64,000 nt of DNA from Candidatus Latescibacterota bacterium (GCA_965203355.1 OZ241889.1:640001-704000), one strand, 5' to 3'; shown: positions 4,106-64,000, counted from the stretch's first letter. Notes: a model not told the origin generated them from the letters alone. Program-made: numbers and translations.

Positions 4106-5704
4106 TCACTCTACGACGAAGGTCGCACAGGTCTCTTGGCTCTCTTCGTATCCAATGCGGATCGCCCTGGCCCGCAAGGTGGTCGTCCCAGCTTCCATGC
4201 ACAGTGGCTCGGTGTAGAGGTTCCAATGCGGATCGTCGTCCACGGCGTACGCCATGGAAGCACCCTGAGTGGCGCAGTGGAGTTGTACCAGCAACGGCCC
4301 CCGGAATGTACCGCCTTCCAGCGTCGGCTCAGTCCCAAAGCTGTCGCCGCAGATGGGCACGCACACCGGCGGGGCTGTCTGCGGCTGTTGGCCATTGGGA
4401 TACCACTGCCGCATCATTTCGCTTTCCGTCATGCGGCCCATGTCGCCCACTTCTCGCAGCCATTCGTCCAAGGCTCTGCACAGGCGCTCCCGCTCTGGCT
4501 GGTACTGGGGATTGGCCGCCAAGTTGTTGATCTCGTGCGGATCGGCTTCGGTGTCGTACAGCTCTTCAACCGGCCTCGGATAGCGGAACATGGCCGATTG
4601 CGCCTCATCCAACTCGTCGGCCAAGTGCAAGCGCCACATTTCCTGCACAATGGGATGCCGATTGCGATAGGGGATCCACGCCAAGTAGGGGAGCTCTGGC
4701 CGATAATTGCGGATGTACTTAAAGCGGCGGTCGCGCACGGCCCGCACCATGTCGTACGCCTCGTCGTGCCGGTCGCGACTCGCATAGATGTACTCCCGCG
4801 GCGATTGGGCTTGGGGGCCCAAAAACGCGCAGCCCTGCATGTGGGCGAGCACGTCAAGCCCCGCGAGCGAGAGCATCGTAGGGCCTAGATCAACGGTGCT
4901 TACCAAGTCCTCACAGACCTGCCCGGCTTCCATACCGGGGCCGCGGACGATCAGGGGCACGTGAATGCCCGCGTCGTACGGCCAGCGTTTGCCGCGCGGC
5001 AGCGGGCCGTGATCGCTCCAGTGAAAGACGTACGTATTCTCGGACAAGCCGTCTTCGTCGAGCTGTTGTAGCAACTGGGCCAACTCTTGGTCGCTGTGCT
5101 CAATGTGCGTGTACATCCGCGCCATGGCTTGGCGCACTACGGGGGTATCGGGGAAATAGGGCGGCAGCGGAATGGCATCCGGGTCGAACGCTGGATTGGG
5201 ACATTTCTCGGGCCACATGCCGCTTTCGTGAGTGCGAGTGGGGTTGAAGACCGCAAAAAACGGCTGGTCTGGATCGGGACGGTCGCGCCAGTGAGCGTGC
5301 GGACCGAGCGCGTCCCAAGCTGTCAGCGGGGGGGTAAACTGATAATCGGTCTTGGCGTTGTTGGAGCAATAATACCCAGCCGCCCGCAGGTACTCCGTGA
5401 AGCACTTTACGTAGTGCGGCACAACGGCCGAATACGGCGTGGGCATTTCCGGTGTAGCGCGATTGGCGTGCGTCGTGCGCATGTGATGAGTGCCGATCGA
5501 GATCGCGTACATACCGGTGATGATCGCAGACCGGGCCGGGGCGCAGACGCCAGCGGTGGAGAAGCAGCGCGTCCAGCGGCAGCCCTCGGCAGCGAGCCGA
5601 TCCAACGTGGGCGTGCGCGCCACTGGATCGCCGTAGCATCCGTACCGAGGGTTAGTATCTTCAAATGAAATCCACAGAAAGTTGGGTTTGCGATCCCTAG
5701 CCAT
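4106..5704 (-). CDS. sulfatase with a C-terminal Fn3-associated/chitobiase-like beta domain
   Basis: KPNFLWISFED, CAPARS formylglycine motif, SDHG, ELYDTEADPHEINNLA; C-terminal CATQGASMAY..YTEPL..TLRARAIRIGYEES. Confidence 0.92.
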   Translation of the reverse strand: MARDRKPNFLWISFEDTNPRYGCYGDPVARTPTLDRLAAEGCRWTRCFSTAGVCAPARSAIITGMYAISIGTHHMRTTHANRATPEMPTPYSAVVPHYVKCFTEYLRAAGYYCSNNAKTDYQFTPPLTAWDALGPHAHWRDRPDPDQPFFAVFNPTRTHESGMWPEKCPNPAFDPDAIPLPPYFPDTPVVRQAMARMYTHIEHSDQELAQLLQQLDEDGLSENTYVFHWSDHGPLPRGKRWPYDAGIHVPLIVRGPGMEAGQVCEDLVSTVDLGPTMLSLAGLDVLAHMQGCAFLGPQAQSPREYIYASRDRHDEAYDMVRAVRDRRFKYIRNYRPELPYLAWIPYRNRHPIVQEMWRLHLADELDEAQSAMFRYPRPVEELYDTEADPHEINNLAANPQYQPERERLCRALDEWLREVGDMGRMTESEMMRQWYPNGQQPQTAPPVCVPICGDSFGTEPTLEGGTFRGPLLVQLHCATQGASMAYAVDDDPHWNLYTEPLCMEAGTTTLRARAIRIGYEESQETCATFVVE

Positions 5705-5914
5705 GCGTTCCTTGCCTTACTTTTGCCAACAAAGCGATGATTCAAATCTCCTGCGTCGCGCTGAAAGTTGCAGCGAGATGCGGCGCACTGTCAAGCGCGG
5801 GATTCACTTACATCTCGCCCGCTTGCTCACTAGCGCGGGGTTGTTTTCGGCCTACTCGTTGCGCATAATATGCGCTACCAATTCTCACAAACAGACGACG
5901 CTAGAAAAATCGCC

Positions 5915-7024
5915 ATGAATGCCTATCGTCGCATAGAAGCACTGCTCAAAGAGGCCGACGTGCATATCGGTGGAGACCGGCCCTGGGACATAGCTGTCCA
6001 CGACGACCGCTTTTTCGCGCACGTATTGGGTCGCGGATCGCTGGGTGTCGGCGAGTCGTACGTGGAAGGGTGGTGGGACTGTCCGCAGCTAGACGAACTT
6101 TGCGCGCGGCTCTTGCGCACCCGACTGGACCTAAAGTCGCGCGGCCGGCATCTGCTTTTGCCCTATCTGAAGGCACGGCTACTCAACCTGCAAACGCCTG
6201 CCCGCTCCTTCCAGGTCGGCCAGCACCACTACGATATCGGCAACGACCTGTACCGGGCGATGCTCGACCAGCGCATGATCTATAGCTGCGGGTATTGGCG
6301 CAATGCCGCCAACTTAGATGAGGCCCAAGAGGCCAAGCTCGATTTGTGCTGCCGCAAGCTGGGGCTGGAGCCGGGGATGACCCTGCTCGACATCGGCTGC
6401 GGCTGGGGCGGCACCCTGCGGTTTGCAGTCCAGCGCTACGGCGTCAAAGGGGTGGGCGTCACGATCTCCAAAGAGCAGGCAAAACTGGCCGAGGAGATGT
6501 GTCGCGGGCTGTCGGTAGAGATTCGCTTGCAGGACTACCGCGCCTTAGACGAGCACTTTGACCGCATCTTGTCGATCGGCATGTTCGAGCACGTGGGCGT
6601 CAAGAACTATCCAACCTTTATGCAAACGGTCAAGCACTGCCTCGCACCAGATGGGCGCTTTTTACTGCACACCATAGGCCGCAGCACCTCGGCGACCAAT
6701 AGCGATCCGTGGATTGAACGCTATATTTTCCCCAACTCTATGCTGCCTTCGGCTAAGCAGATAACCACGGCCGCTGAGGGGCACTTCGTCTTGGAGGACT
6801 GGCACGCCTTTGGCCAGCATTACGACCGGACGCTGATGGCTTGGTATGCCAACTTCAACGCGGCTTGGAGCGAGCTCAAAGCCCACTACGGCGAGCCCTT
6901 CTACCGGATGTGGACGTTCTACTTGCTGTCTTCGGCCGGCTCCTTCCGCGCCCGGGCGAATCAACTCTGGCAAGTCCTCTTCTCCGCTAGGGGAATTGAA
7001 GGGTCCTACGAAGTGCCGCGGTGA
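5915..7024 (+). CDS. cfa: cyclopropane-fatty-acyl-phospholipid synthase
   Basis: HYDIGNDLY, MIYSCGYW, LDIGCGWGG, SIGMFEHVG, WIERYIFP, FYRMWTFYL; start taken at ATG 5915. Confidence 0.93.
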   Translation: MNAYRRIEALLKEADVHIGGDRPWDIAVHDDRFFAHVLGRGSLGVGESYVEGWWDCPQLDELCARLLRTRLDLKSRGRHLLLPYLKARLLNLQTPARSFQVGQHHYDIGNDLYRAMLDQRMIYSCGYWRNAANLDEAQEAKLDLCCRKLGLEPGMTLLDIGCGWGGTLRFAVQRYGVKGVGVTISKEQAKLAEEMCRGLSVEIRLQDYRALDEHFDRILSIGMFEHVGVKNYPTFMQTVKHCLAPDGRFLLHTIGRSTSATNSDPWIERYIFPNSMLPSAKQITTAAEGHFVLEDWHAFGQHYDRTLMAWYANFNAAWSELKAHYGEPFYRMWTFYLLSSAGSFRARANQLWQVLFSARGIEGSYEVPR

Positions 7025-9929: not shown

Positions 9930-10340
9930 ATGGGACCTCAAACCGAAAACTGAGGTCCCATTTCCGCAACTTGCGGTGTAGTGGGGGCTACTTGAGCAGC
10001 AACATCTTCTGGACGGCGAGGAAATCACCGCCCGCTTGCAAGCGGGCCGTAGGCGGGCGAGTTGACGTTCATAAAGAAAATGGGACCTCAAACCGAAAAC
10101 TGAGGTCCCATTTCCGTAACTCGCGGTGCCGCGGGTGCTACTTGAGCAGCAGCATCTTCTTGATGTCGACAAACGCTTCGCCGACCTGCAAGCGGTCCGT
10201 AAGCTGGCGATCTGACGTTCATAAGAAAATGGGACCCCAGAACATCGGGGTCCCATTTCCGTAACGCGCGGTGTCGCGTATGCTACTTGAGCAGCAGCAT
10301 CTTCTTGATGTCGAGGAAATCACCGCCCGCCTGCAAGCGG
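9930..10340 (-). repeat. tandem array, 149-150 bp period: three units of [last 18 codons + stop of a KMLLLK tail - hairpin terminator], joined by two similar 25-bp linkers
   Basis: TGGGACC hairpins start at 9931, 10081 and 10230. CTACTTGAGCAGC (= LLK*) is at 9988, 10138 and 10283. The tails read RLQAGGDFLDIKKMLLLK (gene), RLQVGEAFVDIKKMLLLK and RLQAGGDFLAVQKMLLLK. Confidence 0.95.
10226..10260 (-). terminator. intrinsic terminator of the giant surface-protein gene (two further copies at ~10076-10115 and ~9930-9965)
   Basis: GGAAATGGGACCCC-loop-GGGGTCCCATTTTC followed by T-rich sequence on the - strand. Confidence 0.8.
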
Positions 10341-13300
10341 TAGAAGTACATCCCGGACGACACGCTCTGGCCGCTATCGTTGGTCGCGTCCCATTCCACC
10401 GCGTAACGACCCGCCGCCTGATGCTCGGCAACCAGCGTCCGCACCGGCTGACCCAACACGTTATATACGGTCAGCCCCACGTCCGCCGCTTGCGGCAACG
10501 CATACTGAATCGTCGTCTGCGGATTGAACGGGTTCGGATAGTTGGCTGCCAGCGAAAACACGGCCGGGCGCGTCTGCACCGAAACCGGCGCGGGCAATGC
10601 CAAGCGGTTGAAGCCCAACGCCCGGTCATACGTCTGGCTGTCGGTGATTTCGAGGGTCGTGTGCTCGATCTCGGTCGTCGGCCGGAAGACCAAGCGCAGC
10701 ATCAGCTCGCCATCCGAAACGACGTCGCCGTGGGCGGCTACCGTCAACACGCCCGCTTGGTCGGCCAGCACCTGCGGCGTAGCGAACGCGCTCCCGCCCA
10801 GCGGCTGATCGGTCCGCACTTCGACGAAGGTTAGCTGGTCGGCGTCATAGGCTACTTGCAAGCCGTAGCCCTTGACCGCCACGAAATCGGCCAGTCGCAC
10901 ATTAACGACGAACTCTTCTCCTACGCTCGGCAGGGCTGTCGGCGCGTCCAGATACAGTCGCGCCTCCGCATTCAGCCCGGCTAGCAGCGGCACCGGCTTG
11001 CCCGCCACGGCCATGCTGCGACCGAAATGGTCGGCCAACACGAAGAAGTCGTCGAAGTCAATCGTCCCATTCGGCGCCAGGTCAAACGCCGGATCAAACC
11101 CGGCGTCACCGGCCGTCAAGCCGAAGCGGTCCGCCAACACGAAGAAGTCGTCGAACCCAATGCGTGCGTCGGCTCCGAACAGCCCCAACAGAGCCTGCCC
11201 TTGGCTATCGGCCACCCGGTTGCGCACGGCCAATGCGGTATGCTCAACCGAATCGGTCTCGTTGTCCCAATCGAAAGGCCGCACCTGATAGGTGTAATGC
11301 ACCCCATGCTGCGCCGTCTCATCGACGAAGGACGCGACCCCGGACGCCACCTCGGCGACCACGGAAAACGCTTCTTCGCCGACGGCGCGGCGATAGATGC
11401 GGTAGCCGTGTACGCCGACGACCGGCTCGACCGGTGCCGGGCCCAAGGCGCCAGCCACGACCCCTTGCAGCACCTGATCCGACGGCGACAGCGTCCACGT
11501 CAGCGCGATGCGACCACCCTGATCGTCCGGCGCATCCAACACCTGTAGTGCCGACACGGCCAACGGCGCGATGTCGTCAGTCGCCCGCACAGCCTCGGCC
11601 GTCCAAGTGATCGACGAACTCAGCACACTACTGACGACATTCAACTTCGGAGCCACGCCGCGAGCGTAGGCCAATGCTTCCGGCAGCAACGACGCCAGCA
11701 CCGGACCCTCCTGCGCGGCAGCGCGGCTGGCTTGCAGCGTCGCCGCCATCTGCGCGTAAGGCGCGGTCAGGTCGTCGGCCTCGACGAACACGGCTTTGGC
11801 CGCATGATGCGTGGTGCGACCCCCGCGCTCGGCGGCAATGCCCCAGCGCGTCGAGACGTTGTCCAGCGTCGCCACGATGGCGCGGCCCATCGCCACCCCA
11901 GGCACGGCATCCACCCGCGCCCACGGCACCATCTCATTTTCCAGCACCGGCAACGCACGGAAAATGCGATAGCCGTCCAGCGACTTATGATCCGCCGACA
12001 ACTCCCAAGACAGCATCACGAAACCGCCTTGGTCGCCTTGGCCGTCTGCACCTTTGTAGTCTTCGGCGACCAGGTTGGTCGGTGCCGACAGCGGCGGCTC
12101 CACCACCGCCATGCTCAACGGCAGCGACTGACTCGCGCCGCTGGCATCCATGACCGTGTAGGTCGCGACCGTCTCGCCCATCGTCGTCGGCGTCCCGGAA
12201 ATCGTCCGGGTCGCCGCGTCAAACGACAGCCCCGCTGGCAGCCCCGACACGCTATACGTCAGCGGTGGAGTGCCCCCGGAGACCGCCGGCAGCGTCAGGT
12301 TTGCCGGCACACCGACGGTGAATTGAATCATGTTGTCGGTGTGCGAGTCGGCCGGATTGGCTTTGCCGGCACCGCTGTTGAGACCGAACAACGAACTCAG
12401 GTCGCCAAAGTCCAGCATCGCGTTGATGGTAATCGCGAACATCAGCGAGACGCTTTCGGCGCCAGCCATGGCCGTGTAGGTGACCTCAACGGCCCCATCG
12501 GTCGCCGCTTCCGGCGTCCCCGAAATCGTCCGGGTCGCCGCGTCAAACGACAGCCCCGCTGGCAAACCCGACACGCTATACGTGATGGAGCCTTCGCCGC
12601 CCAACGCCACCGGCAACACCAACGGCGTAATCGCCGTGCCCGCCGTATAGGCATGTGCGTCGATCGAAGTGCCCTCGACGAAAGACAAGGGGATCATCAT
12701 CTCCCTATCGCCGTCATTATCGTCCATCATCCCGCTGTCTGTGTCCGTCAGCACCAGCGTCGCTGAACCCGCCGTCAAGCCGGGAAGCATCGCGTTGAGC
12801 ACCACCGTCTCGTCGCCTTCGGCCATACCGTCGGAGACCGGATCGATCAGCAGGCGCGTCGAACCCATAATCGAACCGGCGGCAATGGTAATGGTCGGAT
12901 TGAACAGCGCCGAGTAGTCCAAATCGCGCGCGGCACTCGAAGCCTCGTCAATCGAGACGGAGACCGTCGCGTTCTCGGCCAACGGCTTGCCGTCCAGCGC
13001 GGCCATGATCATCACTTCCGTCAATTCCGCCGACTCGCTGAGCGCGCTCGGCGTCACCGACAGCACCAGAGACGTGCTTGGCGTCTCGTCGTCGGAAATG
13101 CGCAGGTCCACCTGCCCCCAGCCGCCTGAAGCCGCCGCCCGAATACCCAAGTGCTTATGACCATCCGCCGAAGCGTTGTCAATCGGCGACAGGAAAAGCG
13201 TCGTCCAACCCATCGTCTCCCCGGCCGCAATGGTGATCGTCCCCGCTAATGTCGCGGTATAATCCACGTCGCGGGTGGCCGCCGCGCCGCTGGTCGGCGG

Positions 13301-15976
13301 CACAATCGTGAAACGGACCGTCTCAGCCGCCGGAGCCGCGCCCGACAAGGTCGCCGTAACTCGGATTTCAGCCGTGTCGCCGTTTTCGCGCACCGCCGAT
13401 TGCGAAGCCATCACACTCGCGACACCGACCGTCGCCGACGCGGCTTCACCCACCGTGATGGTGAAGGTCTTTGCGCCGCTGTCGCCATCGCTATCGAGCA
13501 CCATATAGACGACCGTGGCCATGCCCGCCAACGTCGGCGTGCCCGAAATCGTCCGCGTGGCCGCGTCAAACGACAGCCCCATCGGCAAGGTCGCCGAAAC
13601 GCTGTACATCAGCGTTCCTTGGCCGCCCATCGCCGCGGGCAACACCGTGCTGAACGCTTGCCCCACCGTCGCTTCAAAGGCTAACGCGGCAGCACCAAAG
13701 CTCGGTCGGCCCGTGTCCGCGGTCGTATCCGAAGAACCAGAATCATCCATCATCGCCGCGTCTTTCAGCGTGATCGTCGCGGTGCCGACCGTGATCTTGT
13801 CGTCGTCTTGGTTCTTGAGATTGTCCGTGAGCTGCTTGATCGTGATCGTCTTGTCGTTGGCGGGTTTGCCATCGTTGATCGGCGTGATCGTGATCGTCGT
13901 CGAGCCGGTGATCTCGCCGCGCGGAATCGTCAGCGAGCCAAGCACCGCCGTGTATTCTATATCCCGCGTCGCCTTCTTGTCCGGCGTCCGATCTACGACC
14001 AGCGTGATCGTCGCCGCCGCGTCCAGCACCTTGCCGTCCAACGTGCCGGTCACCGTCACCGTCGTCGCCCCGGCGTCCTTTTTGATTTCGCTCGGATTGA
14101 CCGACAGCGTGATGTCATCGCTCAGCGTCTCATCGTCCGTGATCTTGAACTCCACCGTATCCATCTGAGACGCTTCGGTGCCGACCTTCGCTATCACCTC
14201 GAACGTCCGATCCCCATTCACACCGCTGTTGTCCACCGGCGTGACCCGCAACGTCGCCGCGCCTTTCGTATCACCCGCCGGGATCGTCAACCCCTCAGTC
14301 ACCTCCACCTCGTAATGCACATCGCGCGTCCCCGTGCTATTCGTAAGAATCTGAAAGTCCACCGCCTTCGCGCCGGTTAGGGCTTTCTTCAATTCAACCG
14401 TCATCGCAATGTCGGTCGCCCCGGCGGCCTCGCGGATCATCTTCGGACTCAGCGTAAAATCCTTGATCTCCGCCACCGCAACGTCCTCAACCGTGATGGT
14501 GCCCCGATTGACCTTAATATCAGGCAAGATAAAAGATTCCACATACTTAATGGTGTCCCCAACACCGAACGTATCATCAAAGTCGCCATCGCCGTTAAGG
14601 TCGATACGGCCCACCCAATCAAATAAGTTTACGCGTCGCAAACCCACTTCACTTATAGCATTTCCGGTCGGCATATAGGAGTCCAAATAATCACCATCCC
14701 AACTGAGACTTCCCGCGTCCCTGCTCGCGTTCGTAAAGTCGACCCCCAACTCGCTTTCTACCAAGGCGGGGCCGCTCACAGGTACGGAGTCGATTCGATC
14801 CAAAACTCCTGTAGATCCCAAAGTGTAGGATAGAGCAGCTCCCTTATTAAAGGAAAGATCACCATCGCCGTTGAGGTCAAAGCAGATATAGAGATCTCGC
14901 TTTCCCTCACCGGTGTTCGTTTCTTTGACACTTGATCTGGCACCGGCAGGTATGACAAAATCATCTTTGTCCCACGTACCATCGCAGTTGATGTCTACCC
15001 GGACCTGCTTACCATTATACATCCGTTTCTTGATGACCTCCCCCTTCAGCAACGTATCCCTGGCCCCAACCACGATCTTGCCCGCCTTATTATTCGGATC
15101 GAGGGTGAACGTCGTCGTCCCTTCGATCTTCCGCTTTGGAATGGTCAACTTCCCCAGCCCCCTAAGCGAGTAATCCACATCGCGCGTCAACGTATCGGCA
15201 GCACCGCTAACAACAACCAACTGGGGTTCAAGCTTTTTGCTCGTCAACGCGCCGCCATCCAACGTGCCTGTCACTTCAATCGAAGTCACATCCGCCTGCT
15301 TGCTGAGTTTGGACGGCTTAAAAGAAAGATTAATCGCCTGCGGATACTGATCGTCGTCGAGGATCTCCACATACAGGTACTTCAAATTATTGCCGCCCTC
15401 ACCACCGCCGCTCTCCGTTACATACCTTTGCTGAGGACGATATATTATGTTTGCATTACCCGGCGTAAAACGAATAGGGACAAGAATATTAGGGAGTCCA
15501 CGCAGCAAAGTTTGAGCAACCGCCTTTTCCGTTTCCGGCGTACTCCAGAAGTCGTTTCGATCAAGATCAAGGGACTCCTTCGTGCTCTCTGGGGTAGGTC
15601 CGATCCGATCGTTGGGAATCGGGGTTATGGTGATAGTCCCAGTCGCCTTTTTCGCCCCCGCCTTAATCACGAGACTGGAGGGGAAGGATACTCTGAATAA
15701 GTCATTGAGATACTGTGCGGAGGCACTTGCTGCGGGGATACCCATTGCAATCTGAATGTCTTCGTCCGCCGCCTTGTCGTCTTCCACGACGGCTTCGACC
15801 GTAATATCTTGCGCTCCACCGTCCTCGTGGACGAAAAGCGGGTCAAGGGTAACATGAACATTCTTCTTCTGCTGACCCTTGGCCTCGCCGGCCCAGCCCA
15901 ACACCAAAATGGCCGCCAGCAAACAAGGCACAAAAGCCAAACGCGGCATCGGCACGAACAACTTCGCATGTATCAT
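10283..15976 (-). CDS. giant secreted/surface protein (~1897 aa): Calx-beta/Ig-like repeats, 3 He_PIG-type Ig domains, Fn3-like, EF-hand/dockerin-like pair, cohesin-like domain, FlgD-Ig/T9SS-type C-terminal domain
   Basis: CAGGAG RBS and ATG 15976, signal peptide ending WAGEAKG. Repeated 'L.V.P..I.E....T.I.VT.TL..ATRDVDY..LTIP.G..GTTTITITP' units and GLSFDAATRTISGTP x3. IGFDDFFVLADRFG / IDFDDFFVLADHFG. NYPNPFNPQTTIQY..WDATNDSGQSVSSGMYFYRL..KKMLLLK. Confidence 0.88.
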   Translation of the reverse strand: MIHAKLFVPMPRLAFVPCLLAAILVLGWAGEAKGQQKKNVHVTLDPLFVHEDGGAQDITVEAVVEDDKAADEDIQIAMGIPAASASAQYLNDLFRVSFPSSLVIKAGAKKATGTITITPIPNDRIGPTPESTKESLDLDRNDFWSTPETEKAVAQTLLRGLPNILVPIRFTPGNANIIYRPQQRYVTESGGGEGGNNLKYLYVEILDDDQYPQAINLSFKPSKLSKQADVTSIEVTGTLDGGALTSKKLEPQLVVVSGAADTLTRDVDYSLRGLGKLTIPKRKIEGTTTFTLDPNNKAGKIVVGARDTLLKGEVIKKRMYNGKQVRVDINCDGTWDKDDFVIPAGARSSVKETNTGEGKRDLYICFDLNGDGDLSFNKGAALSYTLGSTGVLDRIDSVPVSGPALVESELGVDFTNASRDAGSLSWDGDYLDSYMPTGNAISEVGLRRVNLFDWVGRIDLNGDGDFDDTFGVGDTIKYVESFILPDIKVNRGTITVEDVAVAEIKDFTLSPKMIREAAGATDIAMTVELKKALTGAKAVDFQILTNSTGTRDVHYEVEVTEGLTIPAGDTKGAATLRVTPVDNSGVNGDRTFEVIAKVGTEASQMDTVEFKITDDETLSDDITLSVNPSEIKKDAGATTVTVTGTLDGKVLDAAATITLVVDRTPDKKATRDIEYTAVLGSLTIPRGEITGSTTITITPINDGKPANDKTITIKQLTDNLKNQDDDKITVGTATITLKDAAMMDDSGSSDTTADTGRPSFGAAALAFEATVGQAFSTVLPAAMGGQGTLMYSVSATLPMGLSFDAATRTISGTPTLAGMATVVYMVLDSDGDSGAKTFTITVGEAASATVGVASVMASQSAVRENGDTAEIRVTATLSGAAPAAETVRFTIVPPTSGAAATRDVDYTATLAGTITIAAGETMGWTTLFLSPIDNASADGHKHLGIRAAASGGWGQVDLRISDDETPSTSLVLSVTPSALSESAELTEVMIMAALDGKPLAENATVSVSIDEASSAARDLDYSALFNPTITIAAGSIMGSTRLLIDPVSDGMAEGDETVVLNAMLPGLTAGSATLVLTDTDSGMMDDNDGDREMMIPLSFVEGTSIDAHAYTAGTAITPLVLPVALGGEGSITYSVSGLPAGLSFDAATRTISGTPEAATDGAVEVTYTAMAGAESVSLMFAITINAMLDFGDLSSLFGLNSGAGKANPADSHTDNMIQFTVGVPANLTLPAVSGGTPPLTYSVSGLPAGLSFDAATRTISGTPTTMGETVATYTVMDASGASQSLPLSMAVVEPPLSAPTNLVAEDYKGADGQGDQGGFVMLSWELSADHKSLDGYRIFRALPVLENEMVPWARVDAVPGVAMGRAIVATLDNVSTRWGIAAERGGRTTHHAAKAVFVEADDLTAPYAQMAATLQASRAAAQEGPVLASLLPEALAYARGVAPKLNVVSSVLSSSITWTAEAVRATDDIAPLAVSALQVLDAPDDQGGRIALTWTLSPSDQVLQGVVAGALGPAPVEPVVGVHGYRIYRRAVGEEAFSVVAEVASGVASFVDETAQHGVHYTYQVRPFDWDNETDSVEHTALAVRNRVADSQGQALLGLFGADARIGFDDFFVLADRFGLTAGDAGFDPAFDLAPNGTIDFDDFFVLADHFGRSMAVAGKPVPLLAGLNAEARLYLDAPTALPSVGEEFVVNVRLADFVAVKGYGLQVAYDADQLTFVEVRTDQPLGGSAFATPQVLADQAGVLTVAAHGDVVSDGELMLRLVFRPTTEIEHTTLEITDSQTYDRALGFNRLALPAPVSVQTRPAVFSLAANYPNPFNPQTTIQYALPQAADVGLTVYNVLGQPVRTLVAEHQAAGRYAVEWDATNDSGQSVSSGMYFYRLQAGGDFLDIKKMLLLK

Positions 15977-15978
15977 TA

Positions 15979-16329
15979 CTAAATCTCCTGAAGGAAAGTA
16001 TCGCCCAAGGGCGAAAGGGAAAGGGTAGAAGGAAATGGACTTAGCCTTATCACTAAGCCGTTGCGTTCTTGTATTTTTGCTACCGTTGAGCAAGACGAAT
16101 CCCTCGCGGCGAGAGCTAGGCTACGACGTCGCCGGCCGATAACCGCGAGGCTACCGAGGATGGGTTTCAATGCCCAAGAAAATCGGGGGGGGGGGGGTAA
16201 ATCATTGTTTTTTAACGACTTATGGCGATTAAGCCTCGGCGTTATCGCAAGTGTAGAACAAGGCACCGCTATCGCATCAAGCACCGCTCCCGGCGATGGC
16301 GTTCTTTGTGCTATTGACGTTGTGCCCAT
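15979..16329 (-). CDS. putative leader ORF (116 aa) containing a C13 tract, stopping 2 nt before the surface-protein ATG
   Basis: ORF track; ..KSLKNNDLPPPPR.. spans the tract; junction GAGATT-TAG-TA-ATG; RBS weak. Confidence 0.35.
   Translation of the reverse strand: MGTTSIAQRTPSPGAVLDAIAVPCSTLAITPRLNRHKSLKNNDLPPPPRFSWALKPILGSLAVIGRRRRSLALAARDSSCSTVAKIQERNGLVIRLSPFPSTLSLSPLGDTFLQEI
16185..16197. repeat. G13/C13 homopolymer, next to the imperfect palindrome TAAATCATTG-N5-TAACGACTTA (IHF-like)
   Basis: Direct read: aatcGGGGGGGGGGGGGtaaatcattgttttttaacgactta. Confidence 0.9.
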
Positions 16330-41636: not shown

Positions 41637-41712
41637 TGGCTGCCCCCCTAGGGCTCGAACCTAGAACCTCCTGATCCAGAGTCAGGCGCACTTCCAATTG
41701 TGCTAGAGGGCA
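41637..41712 (-). tRNA. tRNA-Gln(CTG)
   Basis: TGCCCTC acceptor, CCTGA-CT-CTG-GA-TCAGG anticodon arm, GGTTCGAGCCC T-arm, CCA end. Confidence 0.95.
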
Positions 41713-41724
41713 ACTAACCCAAAT

Positions 41725-41818
<94 letters not shown>

Positions 41819-41896
41819 GCGACCATTGCAAAATAAGTTTTTGACGTGTTCCCACCGCTAAAAGAGGTGGGATTGTAGCGGCATCAAATTGGTAAA

Positions 41897-41983
41897 TGGC
41901 GGAGGGTGAGGGATTCGAACCCTCAAGGGCGTGAGCCCGGCGATTTTCAAGACCGCTGCCTTACCAATTAGGTCTAACCCTCC
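41897..41983 (-). tRNA. tRNA-Ser(TGA)
   Basis: GGAGGGT acceptor, GCGGT-CT-TGA-AA-ATCGC, variable arm, TTCGAATCC, CCA. Confidence 0.95.
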
Positions 41984-59355: not shown

Positions 59356-59973
59356 ATGGTTCTGATGGAAGTCAAAGGGGTCTTAAGCAGCAAATCTCTA
59401 TCTTTATATCCCGAAGTAGTACTCAAAGAAGTCGAAGGCAACTCTTATCTGCACATTGTCATCGGCCGCTTTGAGGCAGCAGCTATTTCCACAGCCCATA
59501 GCAAGCAGCAACCTGTACGCCCCATCAGCTACGATCTAGCCCATCAGATTCTCGCCCACGTTGACGCCCGGGTAATCCGGGTCGAAATTACGGACTTTAA
59601 CTCATGTGAGAGAACGTACTACGCCGAGATTCACCTCGTTGACGACGAGGGCAACACTCATACATTCGACGCACGTCCCAGCGATGCCATTGCCCTAGCC
59701 CTGCGCTTTGGCGCACCGATCTACGCTGCCGTCAAGGTACTCGAAGACGTGGGATGTGTTCATTCTGACGACGATGAATGGGTTACGGCTGAAGTTGATG
59801 CTATCACCAAATCCGTGGCCACACCGAGGAAAGAGCACCCTACTATCGCCACATCAGCCGTCAATCAGCTAGAACAACTCAAAAGACGCATGCACCAAGC
59901 GATTGCCGAAGAAATCTACGAGGAGGCGGCACGGCTTCGCGACGAGATTAGTCGCCTCAATGGAGATGACTAA
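59356..59973 (+). CDS. bifunctional nuclease (DUF151) with UVR domain, paralog 1
   Basis: IGRFEAAAI, RPISYDL, YYA, DARPSDAIALALR, EIYEEAARLRDEI. Confidence 0.9.
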   Translation: MVLMEVKGVLSSKSLSLYPEVVLKEVEGNSYLHIVIGRFEAAAISTAHSKQQPVRPISYDLAHQILAHVDARVIRVEITDFNSCERTYYAEIHLVDDEGNTHTFDARPSDAIALALRFGAPIYAAVKVLEDVGCVHSDDDEWVTAEVDAITKSVATPRKEHPTIATSAVNQLEQLKRRMHQAIAEEIYEEAARLRDEISRLNGDD

Positions 59974-60668
59974 TGGGTACTACCTCTTTAGTCGAGATGA
60001 CCGTGGTCAAGGTGAGCCCCTACCTGCGCGAGGACAGACCCTTGGTATGGTTGAGCGAGAAGAACGGTAACCTCCCGCGGCTCCTGCCCATTCCCATCGG
60101 CGAATTTGAAGCGGCCGCCATTAGGATGCGGCTGGAAAACGATAGACCCATACGCCCAATTTCTTACGACTTGCTCGCCTCTATGGTAAATTCCCTTGCG
60201 ATACGCGTACGCCAAGTTGTCATCCACAACGTGCGCCGCTCCATTTACTACGCAAGAGTCGTTATTGAGAAGAATCACACGATAAAAGACGTCGACGCAC
60301 GTCCCAGCGATGCCATCGCTCTGGCCTTGCGCACGGGTTCGCCAATCTACGTTGCTCCTGCGTTGCTCAACGAGGTGGGCTTGGAGCCTTTGGAAACCGA
60401 CTTGGATGTTGGACACACCCTGAACCGCTTGTACGAACTTGAAGCGCAGATTTCCATGCCGCTCAATGCAGAAGCTGACTCGGGCAAGGTCCGCTCGCCG
60501 AAGCGGAACGCCGAAGCGGCTAACGCTCAACACCCGCCGAATGAAGAGAAAGACGAGCTCGGCCTGCTTCAATATCGGCTACAGCAGGCCGTCATATGCG
60601 AAGAATACGAAGAAGCGGCTCGTCTGCGCGACGCTATTGAATCGCTAGCTAAAAAAACCAAGCGTTGA
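59973..60668 (+). CDS. bifunctional nuclease (DUF151) with UVR domain, paralog 2
   Basis: LPIPIGEFEAAAI, RPISYDL, DARPSDAIALALR, EEYEEAARLRDAI. Confidence 0.9.
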   Translation: MGTTSLVEMTVVKVSPYLREDRPLVWLSEKNGNLPRLLPIPIGEFEAAAIRMRLENDRPIRPISYDLLASMVNSLAIRVRQVVIHNVRRSIYYARVVIEKNHTIKDVDARPSDAIALALRTGSPIYVAPALLNEVGLEPLETDLDVGHTLNRLYELEAQISMPLNAEADSGKVRSPKRNAEAANAQHPPNEEKDELGLLQYRLQQAVICEEYEEAARLRDAIESLAKKTKR

Positions 60669-61213: not shown

Positions 61214-61747
61214 TCATCTAGGCGGCTCTAAGTTCCAAGTCCCGATAATGCCCATTATCATATCCCACTGCTTGTCGTCCATCGCGTCTACCAGAGCGAG
61301 CAGGCGTAACACATCGCGATCCTTCTGCTTATTGCGCGCCCGGGCAACGGCCTCCAACCACGGTTGGTCCCCGAGCAGAGCCAAAATTTCTGGCTTCGAT
61401 AATATCCCCAAGAGGGCTGGGTCCAACGGCTCTTCGCTAGACAGGAGCTTGTTGATGACTGGGTCCGACAGCGAGCGCATCATCTTGCCATAGAGCGCAC
61501 GTCCTTCCTCCGAACTCGCCTTGGCCTCGTAAGCAGCAATCAACGCTCTATTAGAGTCGAGTTCCAAAACCTCGGCCAACTTGAGACACACTTCGTCGGA
61601 AGGAACCTTCTCCCCTTTCTCAATTTGTCCTATATAGGTTGCCCATACGCCCTTGGGCCTTCGCGCCGTTACAAGTTGTTCGGCCAATCCCTGCTGGCTT
61701 AGGTGGGCTTGTAGCCGGGCCTCCTTGATCATTTCTGCAAACTGCAT
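61214..61747 (-). CDS. XRE-family HTH transcriptional regulator (start could be 61777)
   Basis: FAEMIKEARLQAHLSQQGLAE..TYIGQIEKGEKVPSDEVCLKLAEVLEL. Confidence 0.85.
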   Translation of the reverse strand: MQFAEMIKEARLQAHLSQQGLAEQLVTARRPKGVWATYIGQIEKGEKVPSDEVCLKLAEVLELDSNRALIAAYEAKASSEEGRALYGKMMRSLSDPVINKLLSSEEPLDPALLGILSKPEILALLGDQPWLEAVARARNKQKDRDVLRLLALVDAMDDKQWDMIMGIIGTWNLEPPR

Positions 61748-61798
61748 TTGCGGTCCCTTTGAATTGTTTTCAACCATCTTCTCTGTCAAAGATACGCA

Positions 61799-61883
61799 CA
61801 CACTTGTAAGTGTGCAAGACTCCATTGTCACTTTCTTTGGGTGTGTTTTTTCGCTTGACAACACAATCTAGCGTGTGTATTTT
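61799..61883 (+). promoter_or_regulatory. sigma70 promoter (TTGACA 61855, N17, TATTTT 61878) with CACA-N8-TGTG operator-like palindromes
   Basis: CACACTTGTAAGTGTG at 61799-61814; CACAATCTAGCGTGTG at 61862-61877 fills the promoter spacer; half-site GTGTG ends at 61845. Confidence 0.6.
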
Positions 61884-61890
61884 TGTTTTT

Positions 61891-62093
61891 GAGTAGAGTG
61901 TGGCGGTCCGCCAGCGTGGATAAAGTCTTGATACGCGAAGCTCGGATTTCCCTTTTCGGGCCGTTGAGATCTTCAAAACTACCTCCCCACACCGCCTCGT
62001 TTGAGGATCTCACTTGTGTTTCAAGATTACACCTGTTCGGCCGCCATACTCTTTATCTTATAAGCAGCCCATTTTTAGATGGGCTGCTTTTTT
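61891..62093 (+). ncRNA. candidate structured small RNA (~200 nt; 6S-like rod or novel)
   Basis: Bounded by a promoter and an intrinsic terminator. Pairings: 61895-61908 with 62039-62052, TCTTGA/TCAAGA, 13-bp stem 61965-61977 with 62000-62012, side hairpin 61940-61961. Confidence 0.6.
62062..62093 (+). terminator. intrinsic terminator
   Basis: AAGCAGCCCAT-loop-ATGGGCTGCTT followed by a T run. Confidence 0.85.
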
Positions 62094-62127
62094 ATTTTTA
62101 GCCTTTACGCCAAATCCTTAATACGCC

Positions 62128-63243
62128 ATGCACATTTGTATGGTCGCCTTCACCGACCTTAATTTCGACTACCGCATCTACCGAGAGGCTACCTCGCTGC
62201 GTCGCGCCGGTCACCAAGTCGTTATTGTCACCTCCTCTTTCAACTCAGCCCCTCTCAAGGGATGGGACGATTTTGAAATCTACCCAATTCCGCTAGACCG
62301 GAGCCACTCGCTGCGTCGCCTCTATCCTTTGTTTTGGCAACGGGCCTACTCTCTTCTCGTCGAGGCCCAGCCGGACGCCTATCACGCCCACGACTTAGAT
62401 TCGCTCTGGCCAGCAGTGCGAGCTGCCCAGCGACTAGCTCGGCCCCTCGTCTATGACGCACATGAATTTTGGACCGAGCAGTCTTCACTGGTCAGCCGAC
62501 CGCTGATGCGGTCCTGCTGGCGTTTGCTGGAGCAGCGGCTGATAAGACGGGTAGATCGCGTCATAACTGTCAGCGGGTCTATCGCCCAATCGCTCATGGA
62601 GCGTTACTGCCTTGACGAGGTCGTCGTTCTGCGCAACTTGCCGCTATTCCGCGATAAGGTCCAAAGCAACCTGATACGCGAAACGCTGGACTTGCCCGAC
62701 GATCTCCCCGTTGTTCTCTACCAAGGAGGATTTCTCACCGAAAACGGCTTGCGCGAGCAAATTGAGGTCGCCGAGGGGCTTGCCGCCGCCCTAGTTCTCA
62801 TTGGGGATGGGCCAAGTGAACAGGCTCTGCGGAACCAAGTTCACGCTACGGGCTTAGAGGACCGGGTCTATTTTATTCCTCGGGTGCCCTTCTACCAACT
62901 TCACAATTACACTTGCTCGGCCGACTTGGGGCTGTGTCTGATCAAAGGCACGGGCAAGAGCTTCTACTACTCTCTGCCCAACAAGCTTTTCGAATACATG
63001 ATGGCCGGGCTACCGGTCTTAGCCAGCAACTTTCCTGAAATGGAGCGCATCGTCCGCGAAACGCATACCGGAGCCACGGTCGATCCAACCAATATAGCAG
63101 CCATTCGAGAGCAAATAGCCGCTTTTTTGGACAGTGCAGCGAAGCGAGAGGAGTGCGCCAAAGCGAGCTTGCAGGCGGCACGACACTATAACTGGGAACG
63201 AGAAGCCGCTCAACTCATCCAGCTTTACGAAACCTTAGCATGA
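62128..63243 (+). CDS. glycosyltransferase family 4
   Basis: YHAHD, VYDAHE, YQGG, IGDGP, LPNKLFEYMMAGLPV. Confidence 0.92.
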   Translation: MHICMVAFTDLNFDYRIYREATSLRRAGHQVVIVTSSFNSAPLKGWDDFEIYPIPLDRSHSLRRLYPLFWQRAYSLLVEAQPDAYHAHDLDSLWPAVRAAQRLARPLVYDAHEFWTEQSSLVSRPLMRSCWRLLEQRLIRRVDRVITVSGSIAQSLMERYCLDEVVVLRNLPLFRDKVQSNLIRETLDLPDDLPVVLYQGGFLTENGLREQIEVAEGLAAALVLIGDGPSEQALRNQVHATGLEDRVYFIPRVPFYQLHNYTCSADLGLCLIKGTGKSFYYSLPNKLFEYMMAGLPVLASNFPEMERIVRETHTGATVDPTNIAAIREQIAAFLDSAAKREECAKASLQAARHYNWEREAAQLIQLYETLA

Positions 63244-64000
63244 ATGCCCCGCTGACGCTTAGCGTCGTAATACCTACTTATGACGAGCCTGAGCGCCTCG
63301 AAGCAGCACTCAAGAGCCTGTCGCAGCAGGATTACCCCCACGAAGCGACCCAAATTATCGTAGTGGACGATGCCTCCCCCCATTTGGACGCCGAGCGGCT
63401 ACATGCGGCGGGCGCGCCTCTACAGTTGCAGCTACTCCGCAACGAACAGAATCAGGGACGCGCTCGGGCGCGCAACACAGCCCTGCGGGTCGCCAGCGGC
63501 GATATCGTCGTCTTTCTCGACAGCGATATGACCGTCGGTGCCAATTTTCTCCGCGCCCATGCCCAACGGCATCAAAACCACGCGGAAGCCGTTTTTGTCG
63601 GCAACATCCGCTTCGCCCGTGAGATTCCCGCTACATCCCTGACTCGCTATCTCGAAGAGAGAGGGGTCCATCGGGTTGATGCGGATAAGACCATACCTTT
63701 CAAGTGCTTCGTCACTGGCAACTCCTCGGTGCGTCGGTCTTCCCTGATCCGCGTAGGGTTTTTCGACGAGGACCTCACGGCTTATGGCGGCGAAGATCTA
63801 GAATTAGGGTATCGCCTACACTTGGCCGGTATTCCGCTTTACTATGCCCCTGAAGCTCTGTCGCACCACAATCACTTGCGTTCGTTGGAGCCGCTCTGCC
63901 ACCTAATGCAGATCTACGGCAGCAAGTCAATCCCGGTCCTCTTAAAAAAGCATCCCGAGCTTGACGCCGTACTCCGGTTGGACTTTATCAGAGCCGCTGC
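63240..64000 (+). CDS. glycosyltransferase family 2 (partial, runs off the window)
   Basis: Manual translation: MNAPLTLSVVIPTYD..IIVVDDAS..ARARN..VFLDSD..GFFDED..YGGEDLELGYRL. Confidence 0.9.
   Translation, partial: MNAPLTLSVVIPTYDEPERLEAALKSLSQQDYPHEATQIIVVDDASPHLDAERLHAAGAPLQLQLLRNEQNQGRARARNTALRVASGDIVVFLDSDMTVGANFLRAHAQRHQNHAEAVFVGNIRFAREIPATSLTRYLEERGVHRVDADKTIPFKCFVTGNSSVRRSSLIRVGFFDEDLTAYGGEDLELGYRLHLAGIPLYYAPEALSHHNHLRSLEPLCHLMQIYGSKSIPVLLKKHPELDAVLRLDFIRAA

Follow-up and report, generated by a model that had tools for sequence, protein, structure and literature searches.

What does the intergenic region between a divergently transcribed xre gene and a glycosyltransferase gene of a Latescibacterota bacterium encode, and how might its product act? 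A preliminary description of this region (61799-62093 of the 64-kb window, the whole stretch of DNA analysed here) had proposed a repressor-switched regulatory RNA, possibly of a new family, that displays an anti-Shine-Dalgarno loop. We found in this region a structured RNA gene that had not been described before and is confined to one Latescibacterota clade; a full-text literature search turned up no regulatory RNA reported for Latescibacterota. This uncultured phylum gains an RNA family that is well defined and has a working covariance model, along with a testable repressor-operator system of unusual ~63-bp phasing. The DNA runs that contain most of the stretch are labelled sponge metagenome, and the link of the RNA to envelope-glycan genes may matter in symbiosis.

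A structured RNA gene limited to one clade

Stretch 61799-62093 is flanked by the divergent xre gene on one side and by a GT4-family glycosyltransferase gene on the other. On the plus strand it carries a sigma-70-type promoter, TTGACA-17-TATTTT (61855-61883; -35 box at 61855-61860, -10 box at 61878-61883), with a 17-nt spacer and 10 of 12 consensus matches, and an intrinsic terminator (62062-62095, +) made of a 12-bp stem (62062-62089, six G-C pairs) followed by a T run. Both had been claimed in the preliminary description, as a near-consensus promoter and a strong terminator, and both were found in place. From the -10 box and the terminator T run, we predict a primary transcript of ~205 nt (61891-62095, +). 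The terminator stem covaries among relatives, and most of the distant RNA loci also have a terminator-like hairpin 3' of the RNA.

The predicted folding energy of 61885-62093 is -89.1 kcal/mol, against -51.3 +/- 4.1 for 200 shuffled sequences (z = -9.3), none of which folded as well (0/200). Both the minimum free energy (MFE) and the consensus folds give a three-way junction, in which a P1-P2 rod on the plus strand bears two hairpins. P1 pairs 61895-61918 with 62030-62052, as indicated by the fold and by conservation, and P2 pairs 61925-61938 with 62014-62027, as indicated by the fold and by covariation. Hairpin 1 (61940-61961, +) exposes a conserved 8-nt pyrimidine loop (61947-61954), and hairpin 2 (61965-62012, +) a 22-nt C-rich loop (61978-61999) that includes ACCUCC. 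The fold confirms the long rod with two pyrimidine-loop hairpins that had been described before. An Rfam scan of the whole window gave no match to the RNA element at the gathering score, so that the suggestion of a possibly new family stands; searching 61700-62200 at E <= 10 returned weak, terminator-driven matches, and none to the folded core. The only Rfam matches of the window are tRNAs elsewhere, in a three-tRNA cluster at 41640-41983 (-). Another feature of the window is a very long open frame of 1936 aa at 10283-16093 (-).

Homologues were collected starting from the XRE protein, which has 127 homologues; 19 of these formed alignment A1, and a search with A1 identified 59 loci in species genomes, titled Latescibacterota nearly throughout, with some Gemmatimonadota. 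Using nhmmer with the RNA, we detected a homologue in 39 of these 59 xre-family loci, each time upstream of xre and divergent from it. A covariance model of 157 positions and 53 pairs (R1) scored 101-181 bits on the plus strand in 39 of 40 full-length matches and 61 bits in the most distant one (L048), compared with at most 27 bits on the reverse strand; adding distant members yielded a broader model (R2). Across 38 distinct sequences 94.2% of the cells were paired and 29 of the 53 pairs showed compensatory changes, a level of covariation that no shuffle equalled (0/500), and sliding the partners by 1-3 columns left 39-47% paired. In a broader alignment of 36 sequences, which includes the distant members, compensatory changes occurred in 38 of the 53 pairs, among them all seven pairs of helix 3 (P2) and eight of the ten pairs of the hairpin 2 stem. 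The outer 10 bp of P1 behave differently, in that these 36 diverse homologues have G-U wobble changes only, apart from two sequences in which the two outermost of the ten pairs are mismatched, whereas the other helices all covary.

Conservation of the large loop is also strict. Among 35 aligned homologues from xre-bearing lineages, 20 of the 22 loop positions never vary and two are conserved to at least 90%, even though the neighbouring XRE protein falls to 45% identity. The most distant homologues keep a CUCC...AC...CGCCUCG core, of which CGCCUCG is the better conserved part; the CCUCC part varies in distant homologues. Sequence invariance of this extent points to a conserved partner. Two loci (L015 and L016, ~2686-2700, -) carry an 11-nt tandem duplication of the P1 3' strand, which offers the invariant P1 5' strand two alternative partners.

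The region could also be read as a small protein gene or a miniature inverted-repeat mobile element, with no RNA gene at all, and we regard this as highly improbable. A 72-codon plus-strand frame is open at 61883-62101, and related frames are open in L097 and L098; against a coding role, close relatives of the element are separated by single-base indels, the 22-nt loop shows no variation at any codon position, third position included, and the fold covaries strongly. Given the 1-nt indels and the lack of third-position variation in the loop we judge this frame to be non-coding, in agreement with the earlier view that the transcript has no credible plus-strand ORF. The mobile-element variant draws on the long inverted repeat, which looks like mobile-element ends, but we found no second copy within the window and one copy per genome, at a fixed syntenic place, where a repeat element would be expected to have many dispersed copies; identity with a repeat element was therefore rejected. 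Taken together, covariation, strand specificity and single-copy synteny establish a genuine structured RNA gene, and we treat its conserved fold, which has no Rfam match, as a new RNA family.

Matches to the RNA were present in 45 (R1) or 46 (R2) of the 150 Latescibacterota species genomes sampled, at one copy per matching genome, second matches being on the reverse strand at the same place. Three complete chromosomes have one RNA copy each, and two that have only an xre paralogue have none. A single copy in each of 46/150 genomes marks the RNA as clade-specific rather than as a housekeeping RNA of the phylum. Paralogues of xre with 33-52% identity and the same GVW-TYIGQIEKG core (L038-L047, L051-L053, L055-L059) lie in other contexts, without RNA or GT4, and genomes G004 and G005 have such a paralogue and lack the RNA.

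The glycan operon and the putative XRE operators

The gene following the terminator encodes a GT4-family glycosyltransferase (62128-63243, +; identified by Pfam and NCBIfam) and is the first of an operon. It is followed by a GT2-family, EpsD/MftF-like glycosyltransferase gene (63240-64000, +) that runs off the window and, in a relative, by a gene for a CPBP/Rce1-like protease, which completes a GT4-GT2-CPBP operon with convergent sucCD beyond it. In 45 of the 46 RNA-bearing genomes the RNA core shares its strand with a GT4 orthologue (cut-off E <= 1e-110) at a distance of 59-276 nt; conversely, GT4 orthologues occur in 50/150 genomes, 45 of which also have the RNA. Four of the remaining GT4-orthologue genomes lack an RNA match even with filters off, hyp160 being followed directly by GT4, and in the fifth the region is cut by a contig end. 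One genome (G059) retains RNA and xre upstream of an uncharacterized 567-aa gene, itself followed by another GT4-family gene, and at L054 IS3-like transposase remnants with broken frames (930-2570) separate the RNA terminator from GT4. The RNA and GT4 are thus not obligatorily linked. G007 and G009, two genomes without the RNA, have GT4-like matches (38-40% identity) in unrelated surroundings; these were not accepted as orthologues.

In most xre-adjacent loci the gap between terminator and GT4 measures 20-60 nt (longer in L035, L036 and L033), and in the loci compared it is pyrimidine-rich, with no conserved promoter or Shine-Dalgarno (SD) sequence. Read-through of the terminator probably feeds the GT4-GT2-CPBP operon. 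As the whole block is syntenic in the clade, adjacency alone does not distinguish a cis from a trans role of the RNA. We considered and dropped an inverted repeat formed by the P1 3' strand with GT4 codons 4-7, as it is not conserved in relatives. Four loci (L101, L104-L106) share a conserved pair of TTGACC boxes ~16 nt apart, 60-110 nt past the RNA and before GT4, which could be a promoter or the site of another regulator. Elsewhere in the neighbourhood, two tandem paralogues at 59356-60668 (+), each with a bifunctional-nuclease domain and a UVR motif, are followed by a 160-aa gene with no family match, and this trio is syntenic with the RNA across the clade.

On the other side of the RNA, xre (61214-61747, -) encodes a 177-aa protein with a phage-repressor-type N-terminal helix-turn-helix (HTH; Pfam HTH_3/HTH_31) and an all-helical C-terminal domain. 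When its AlphaFold model (pLDDT 84.6) was compared by Foldseek, the HTH part alone found matches, to P22 c2, the C-protein C.BclI and SinR; the C-terminal domain had no match at E <= 0.001.

Two putative operators lie in the shared intergenic region. O1 (61799-61814), in front of xre, is a perfect 7-2-7 palindrome kept in relatives, and would be the site of xre autoregulation; O2 (61862-61877), a CACA-N8-TGTG palindrome, fills the spacer of the RNA promoter, and the arrangement of -35 box, spacer palindrome and -10 box is conserved across all xre-bearing lineages. The two centres are 63 bp apart. The preliminary description had correctly placed a palindrome within the promoter spacer next to a divergent XRE gene, and had further reported palindromes or half-sites recurring every 31-32 bp. 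Of this, the two full sites stood and the short period did not: the GGTGTG half-site between them (61840-61845) varies in relatives, and the conserved spacing is 62-64 bp.

We tallied palindromes with an ACAC-N4-10-GTGT regular expression in the 300 nt upstream of P1 at 54 RNA loci, 12 of which have no adjacent xre. Palindromes were present at 42/42 loci with an adjacent xre, compared with 2/12 without (these loci being interrelated and not independent), and 41 of the 42 had two or more sites, where shuffled sequences give a chance expectation of 0.02 per locus. Both palindrome-bearing loci without xre (L098, L100) belong to genomes that encode an XRE-family homologue elsewhere, and three palindrome-free genomes have no XRE-family homologue. 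This remote type of XRE homologue, seen in G094 and G108, differs in its C-terminus and lacks a palindrome of its own. At 24 of the 32 loci with at least two sites the operator centres are 62-64 bp apart, equivalent to six helical turns, and any third site follows after another 62-71 bp (63-64 bp at 6 of 11 three-site loci). Such third sites occur where a ~100-nt leader separates the promoter from P1; the lineage of the window lacks both leader and third site, and its promoter abuts P1.

At the loci without xre, a HEAT-repeat lipoprotein gene occupies the xre position, and most of these loci have a promoter of the TTGACT/TTGACA-17-TACATT type with no palindrome. In four loci (L097, L098, L101 and L108, ~1300-1880) the HEAT-repeat lipoprotein gene encodes 162-194 aa and lies on the same strand as the RNA. 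The tracking of palindromes with xre and the ~63-bp phasing lend comparative support to the earlier proposal of a repressor-switched RNA, and the putative control of the RNA promoter by XRE is strongly backed by this comparison among relatives.

Abundance and possible modes of action

We compared four metatranscriptome runs (X15, X16, X17 and X19) from four studies as contigs, from which neither transcript ends nor strand can be read; the six RNA runs with ~0.10 of the words carry no weight beyond these four. In X15, five short contigs confined to 61925-62033 had word depths between 1,200 and 6,900, four of these at 5,200-6,900, compared with 33.6 for the xre contig and 13.9 for the GT4 contig, and in X17 the core contig had a depth of 183 versus 11.9 (xre) and 3.2 (GT4), although expression is poorly reflected in contig depth and reads of several related species may pool on the conserved core. 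Depth was flat in X16 and X19 (9 and 21); DNA carry-over is likely in X19, because its contig crosses the entire intergenic region, and in X16 one contig joins the core, the terminator and 220 nt of GT4 (61905-62348), which fits either read-through or DNA. These depths are consistent with an abundant stable RNA and are not proof of one. Neither X15 nor X17 had high-depth cover on the P1 5' strand (61874-61907) or beyond ~62043, and library adapters abut 61921-61925 and 61934/62034 in these runs; P1 might be trimmed off a mature RNA of ~115 nt, though missing contig cover is in itself no evidence of trimming.

How would such an RNA work? Our preferred reading, which we hold tentatively and give a little less than an even chance, is an XRE-repressed, trans-acting RNA with C-rich loops and with read-through into the operon. 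XRE dimers would bind the phased ACAC-N6-10-GTGT operators and shut both divergent promoters, with O2 in the spacer of the RNA promoter and O1 before xre, six helical turns away. Some signal, which the XRE C-terminal domain presumably senses, would free both the RNA and xre from repression, and the strong sigma-70-type promoter would then give a stable RNA ending at its own terminator. This RNA would act in trans, its invariant unpaired C-rich loops pairing with G-rich stretches such as ribosome-binding sites, and polymerases that pass the terminator would also transcribe the GT4-GT2-CPBP envelope-glycan operon.

The trans-action step rests on analogy, as no target was found. Searching three genomes for the 19-nt loop complement with up to three mismatches gave self matches and chance-level matches only, and when the two loops were scanned for duplexes with 46 start regions in the window, the best energy was -24.7, compared with -25.8 for the 1% tail of random sites, so that target prediction with the loops yielded nothing above background. 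SD-like motifs precede 16 of the 46 crude gene starts versus a background of 10%, which by this rough measure makes SD use plausible. The anti-Shine-Dalgarno role proposed earlier for the large loop was not established and stays an analogy: it has no target, and the CCUCC part varies in distant homologues. Nor does base pairing account for the invariance of 22 loop nucleotides and of the outer 10 bp in P1, and the near-universal adjacency to GT4 (45/46) also fits a role in cis.

We weighed such a cis role in the form of a leader or attenuator, whose terminator stops most transcripts while a ligand, a protein or the action of the RNA on polymerase sets the read-through to the operon. It would account for the co-orientation of RNA core and GT4 at 59-276 nt in 45/46 genomes, for the 20-60 nt gap past the terminator, free of conserved promoter or SD, in most xre-adjacent loci, for the near confinement of GT4 orthologues to RNA genomes (45 of 50 in the 150 sampled) and for G059, where the RNA again lies upstream of glycan genes; the X16 contig from core through terminator into GT4 (61905-62348) points the same way, but may be DNA carry-over. 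However, the MFE fold shows no alternative pairing between fold and terminator, the linker is not conserved, and switching of P1 is unlikely because this helix is long, G-C rich and invariant; processive antitermination would have little to act on, since the operon has three genes only. The RNA is moreover absent from four GT4-orthologue genomes, and thus does not accompany the operon everywhere, and adjacency within a block that is syntenic throughout the clade is weak evidence. On balance we consider a cis-acting leader rather unlikely, with perhaps a quarter of our confidence behind it.

A further reading takes the RNA to bind protein, its P1 duplex and loops docking a conserved partner, either to sequester it in the manner of 6S or CsrB RNA or as the RNA subunit of a clade-specific particle. 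The near-invariance of P1 in its outer 10 bp against covariation in all other helices, the conservation of the 22-nt loop at every position in 35 homologues and the very high core depth in two RNA runs all suit it, and RF00013 matched none of five Latescibacterota genomes even at E <= 1, although this absence of 6S is weak evidence because the RF00013 control matched only 5 of 14 known genomes. Speaking against it, the fold is a three-way junction without a two-sided central bubble, the RNA occurs in 46/150 genomes, unlike a housekeeping RNA, and no candidate partner gene travels with it except xre, which is itself absent from 12/54 loci. We regard a protein-binding role as unlikely, at about one-fifth of our confidence. 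The fold is large enough for a ligand- or protein-binding role to stay conceivable, and an equally doubtful extension, held at that same low level, is that the P1 duplex and the 22-nt loop form a docking surface and not pairing seeds, making this an 'ornate' RNA of a new class. One version would have the RNA sense a protein or a precursor of envelope glycan, as a riboswitch or attenuator, and thereby gate GT4-GT2-CPBP; in the other it would serve a protein complex peculiar to the clade, as decoy or RNA subunit. With both versions, XRE would supply an additional, transcriptional gate in some of the clade's members.

Comparison with known systems

In organisation, the locus resembles the OxyR-OxyS, GcvA-GcvB and SgrR-SgrS-SetA systems, in which a regulator gene stands back to back with an RNA gene and the regulatory sites lie between them; in the case of SgrS, a related downstream gene is expressed by read-through. 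Here, too, xre is back to back with the RNA gene, palindromes lie in the shared intergenic region, and a promoter and intrinsic terminator of its own enclose the non-coding transcript. Those systems, however, have LysR- or SgrR-type activators and Hfq-dependent RNAs and belong to enterobacteria, whereas the putative regulator here is an XRE-type repressor with two to three operators at ~63 bp, the RNA has much more structure, and some members of the family lack xre. The seeding of unpaired C-rich loops on G-rich ribosome-binding sites is known from RsaE/RoxS and RNAIII of Firmicutes, to which the present RNA has no sequence or structure match in Rfam.

Its similar size, its long closing rod and its apparent abundance in RNA libraries recall 6S RNA. 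The preliminary description had noted that the two-sided central bubble of 6S was not evident, and we indeed find in its place a three-way junction with two hairpins, both supported by covariation. With no RF00013 match, no bubble and a presence in 46/150 genomes only, identity with 6S RNA was rejected.

EAR of the Bacillus eps operon is a leader RNA of a polysaccharide operon, and both EAR and put of HK022 act on polymerase. The RNA described here is likewise structured, directly upstream of glycosyltransferase genes, co-oriented with them and followed by a terminator that polymerase has to pass; it differs, in a comparison made by Rfam scan only, in having a strong promoter and a terminator of its own, in a three-gene operon and in that the GT4 orthologues of four genomes do without it.

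Functionally, the closest analogue is Yfr1, an abundant RNA, phylum-wide in cyanobacteria, of 54-69 nt, with two stem-loops around an unpaired stretch of 16-20 nt and an ultraconserved, unpaired C-rich 11-mer, ACUCCUCACAC (PMC2190773). It regulates cell-wall genes (PMC6974561), and the RNA described here adjoins envelope-glycan genes; a related, non-identical CUCC...CACAC string stands in the hairpin 2 loop, where L097 matches 10 of the 11 letters. The present RNA belongs to another phylum, its core of ~157 nt contains a three-way junction, and it has both an invariant closing helix and another conserved loop; the resemblance to Yfr1 is at most a functional analogy and not homology. We take it for a transcription-factor-gated regulatory RNA, as the palindromes suggest, whose structure is unusually large and invariant.
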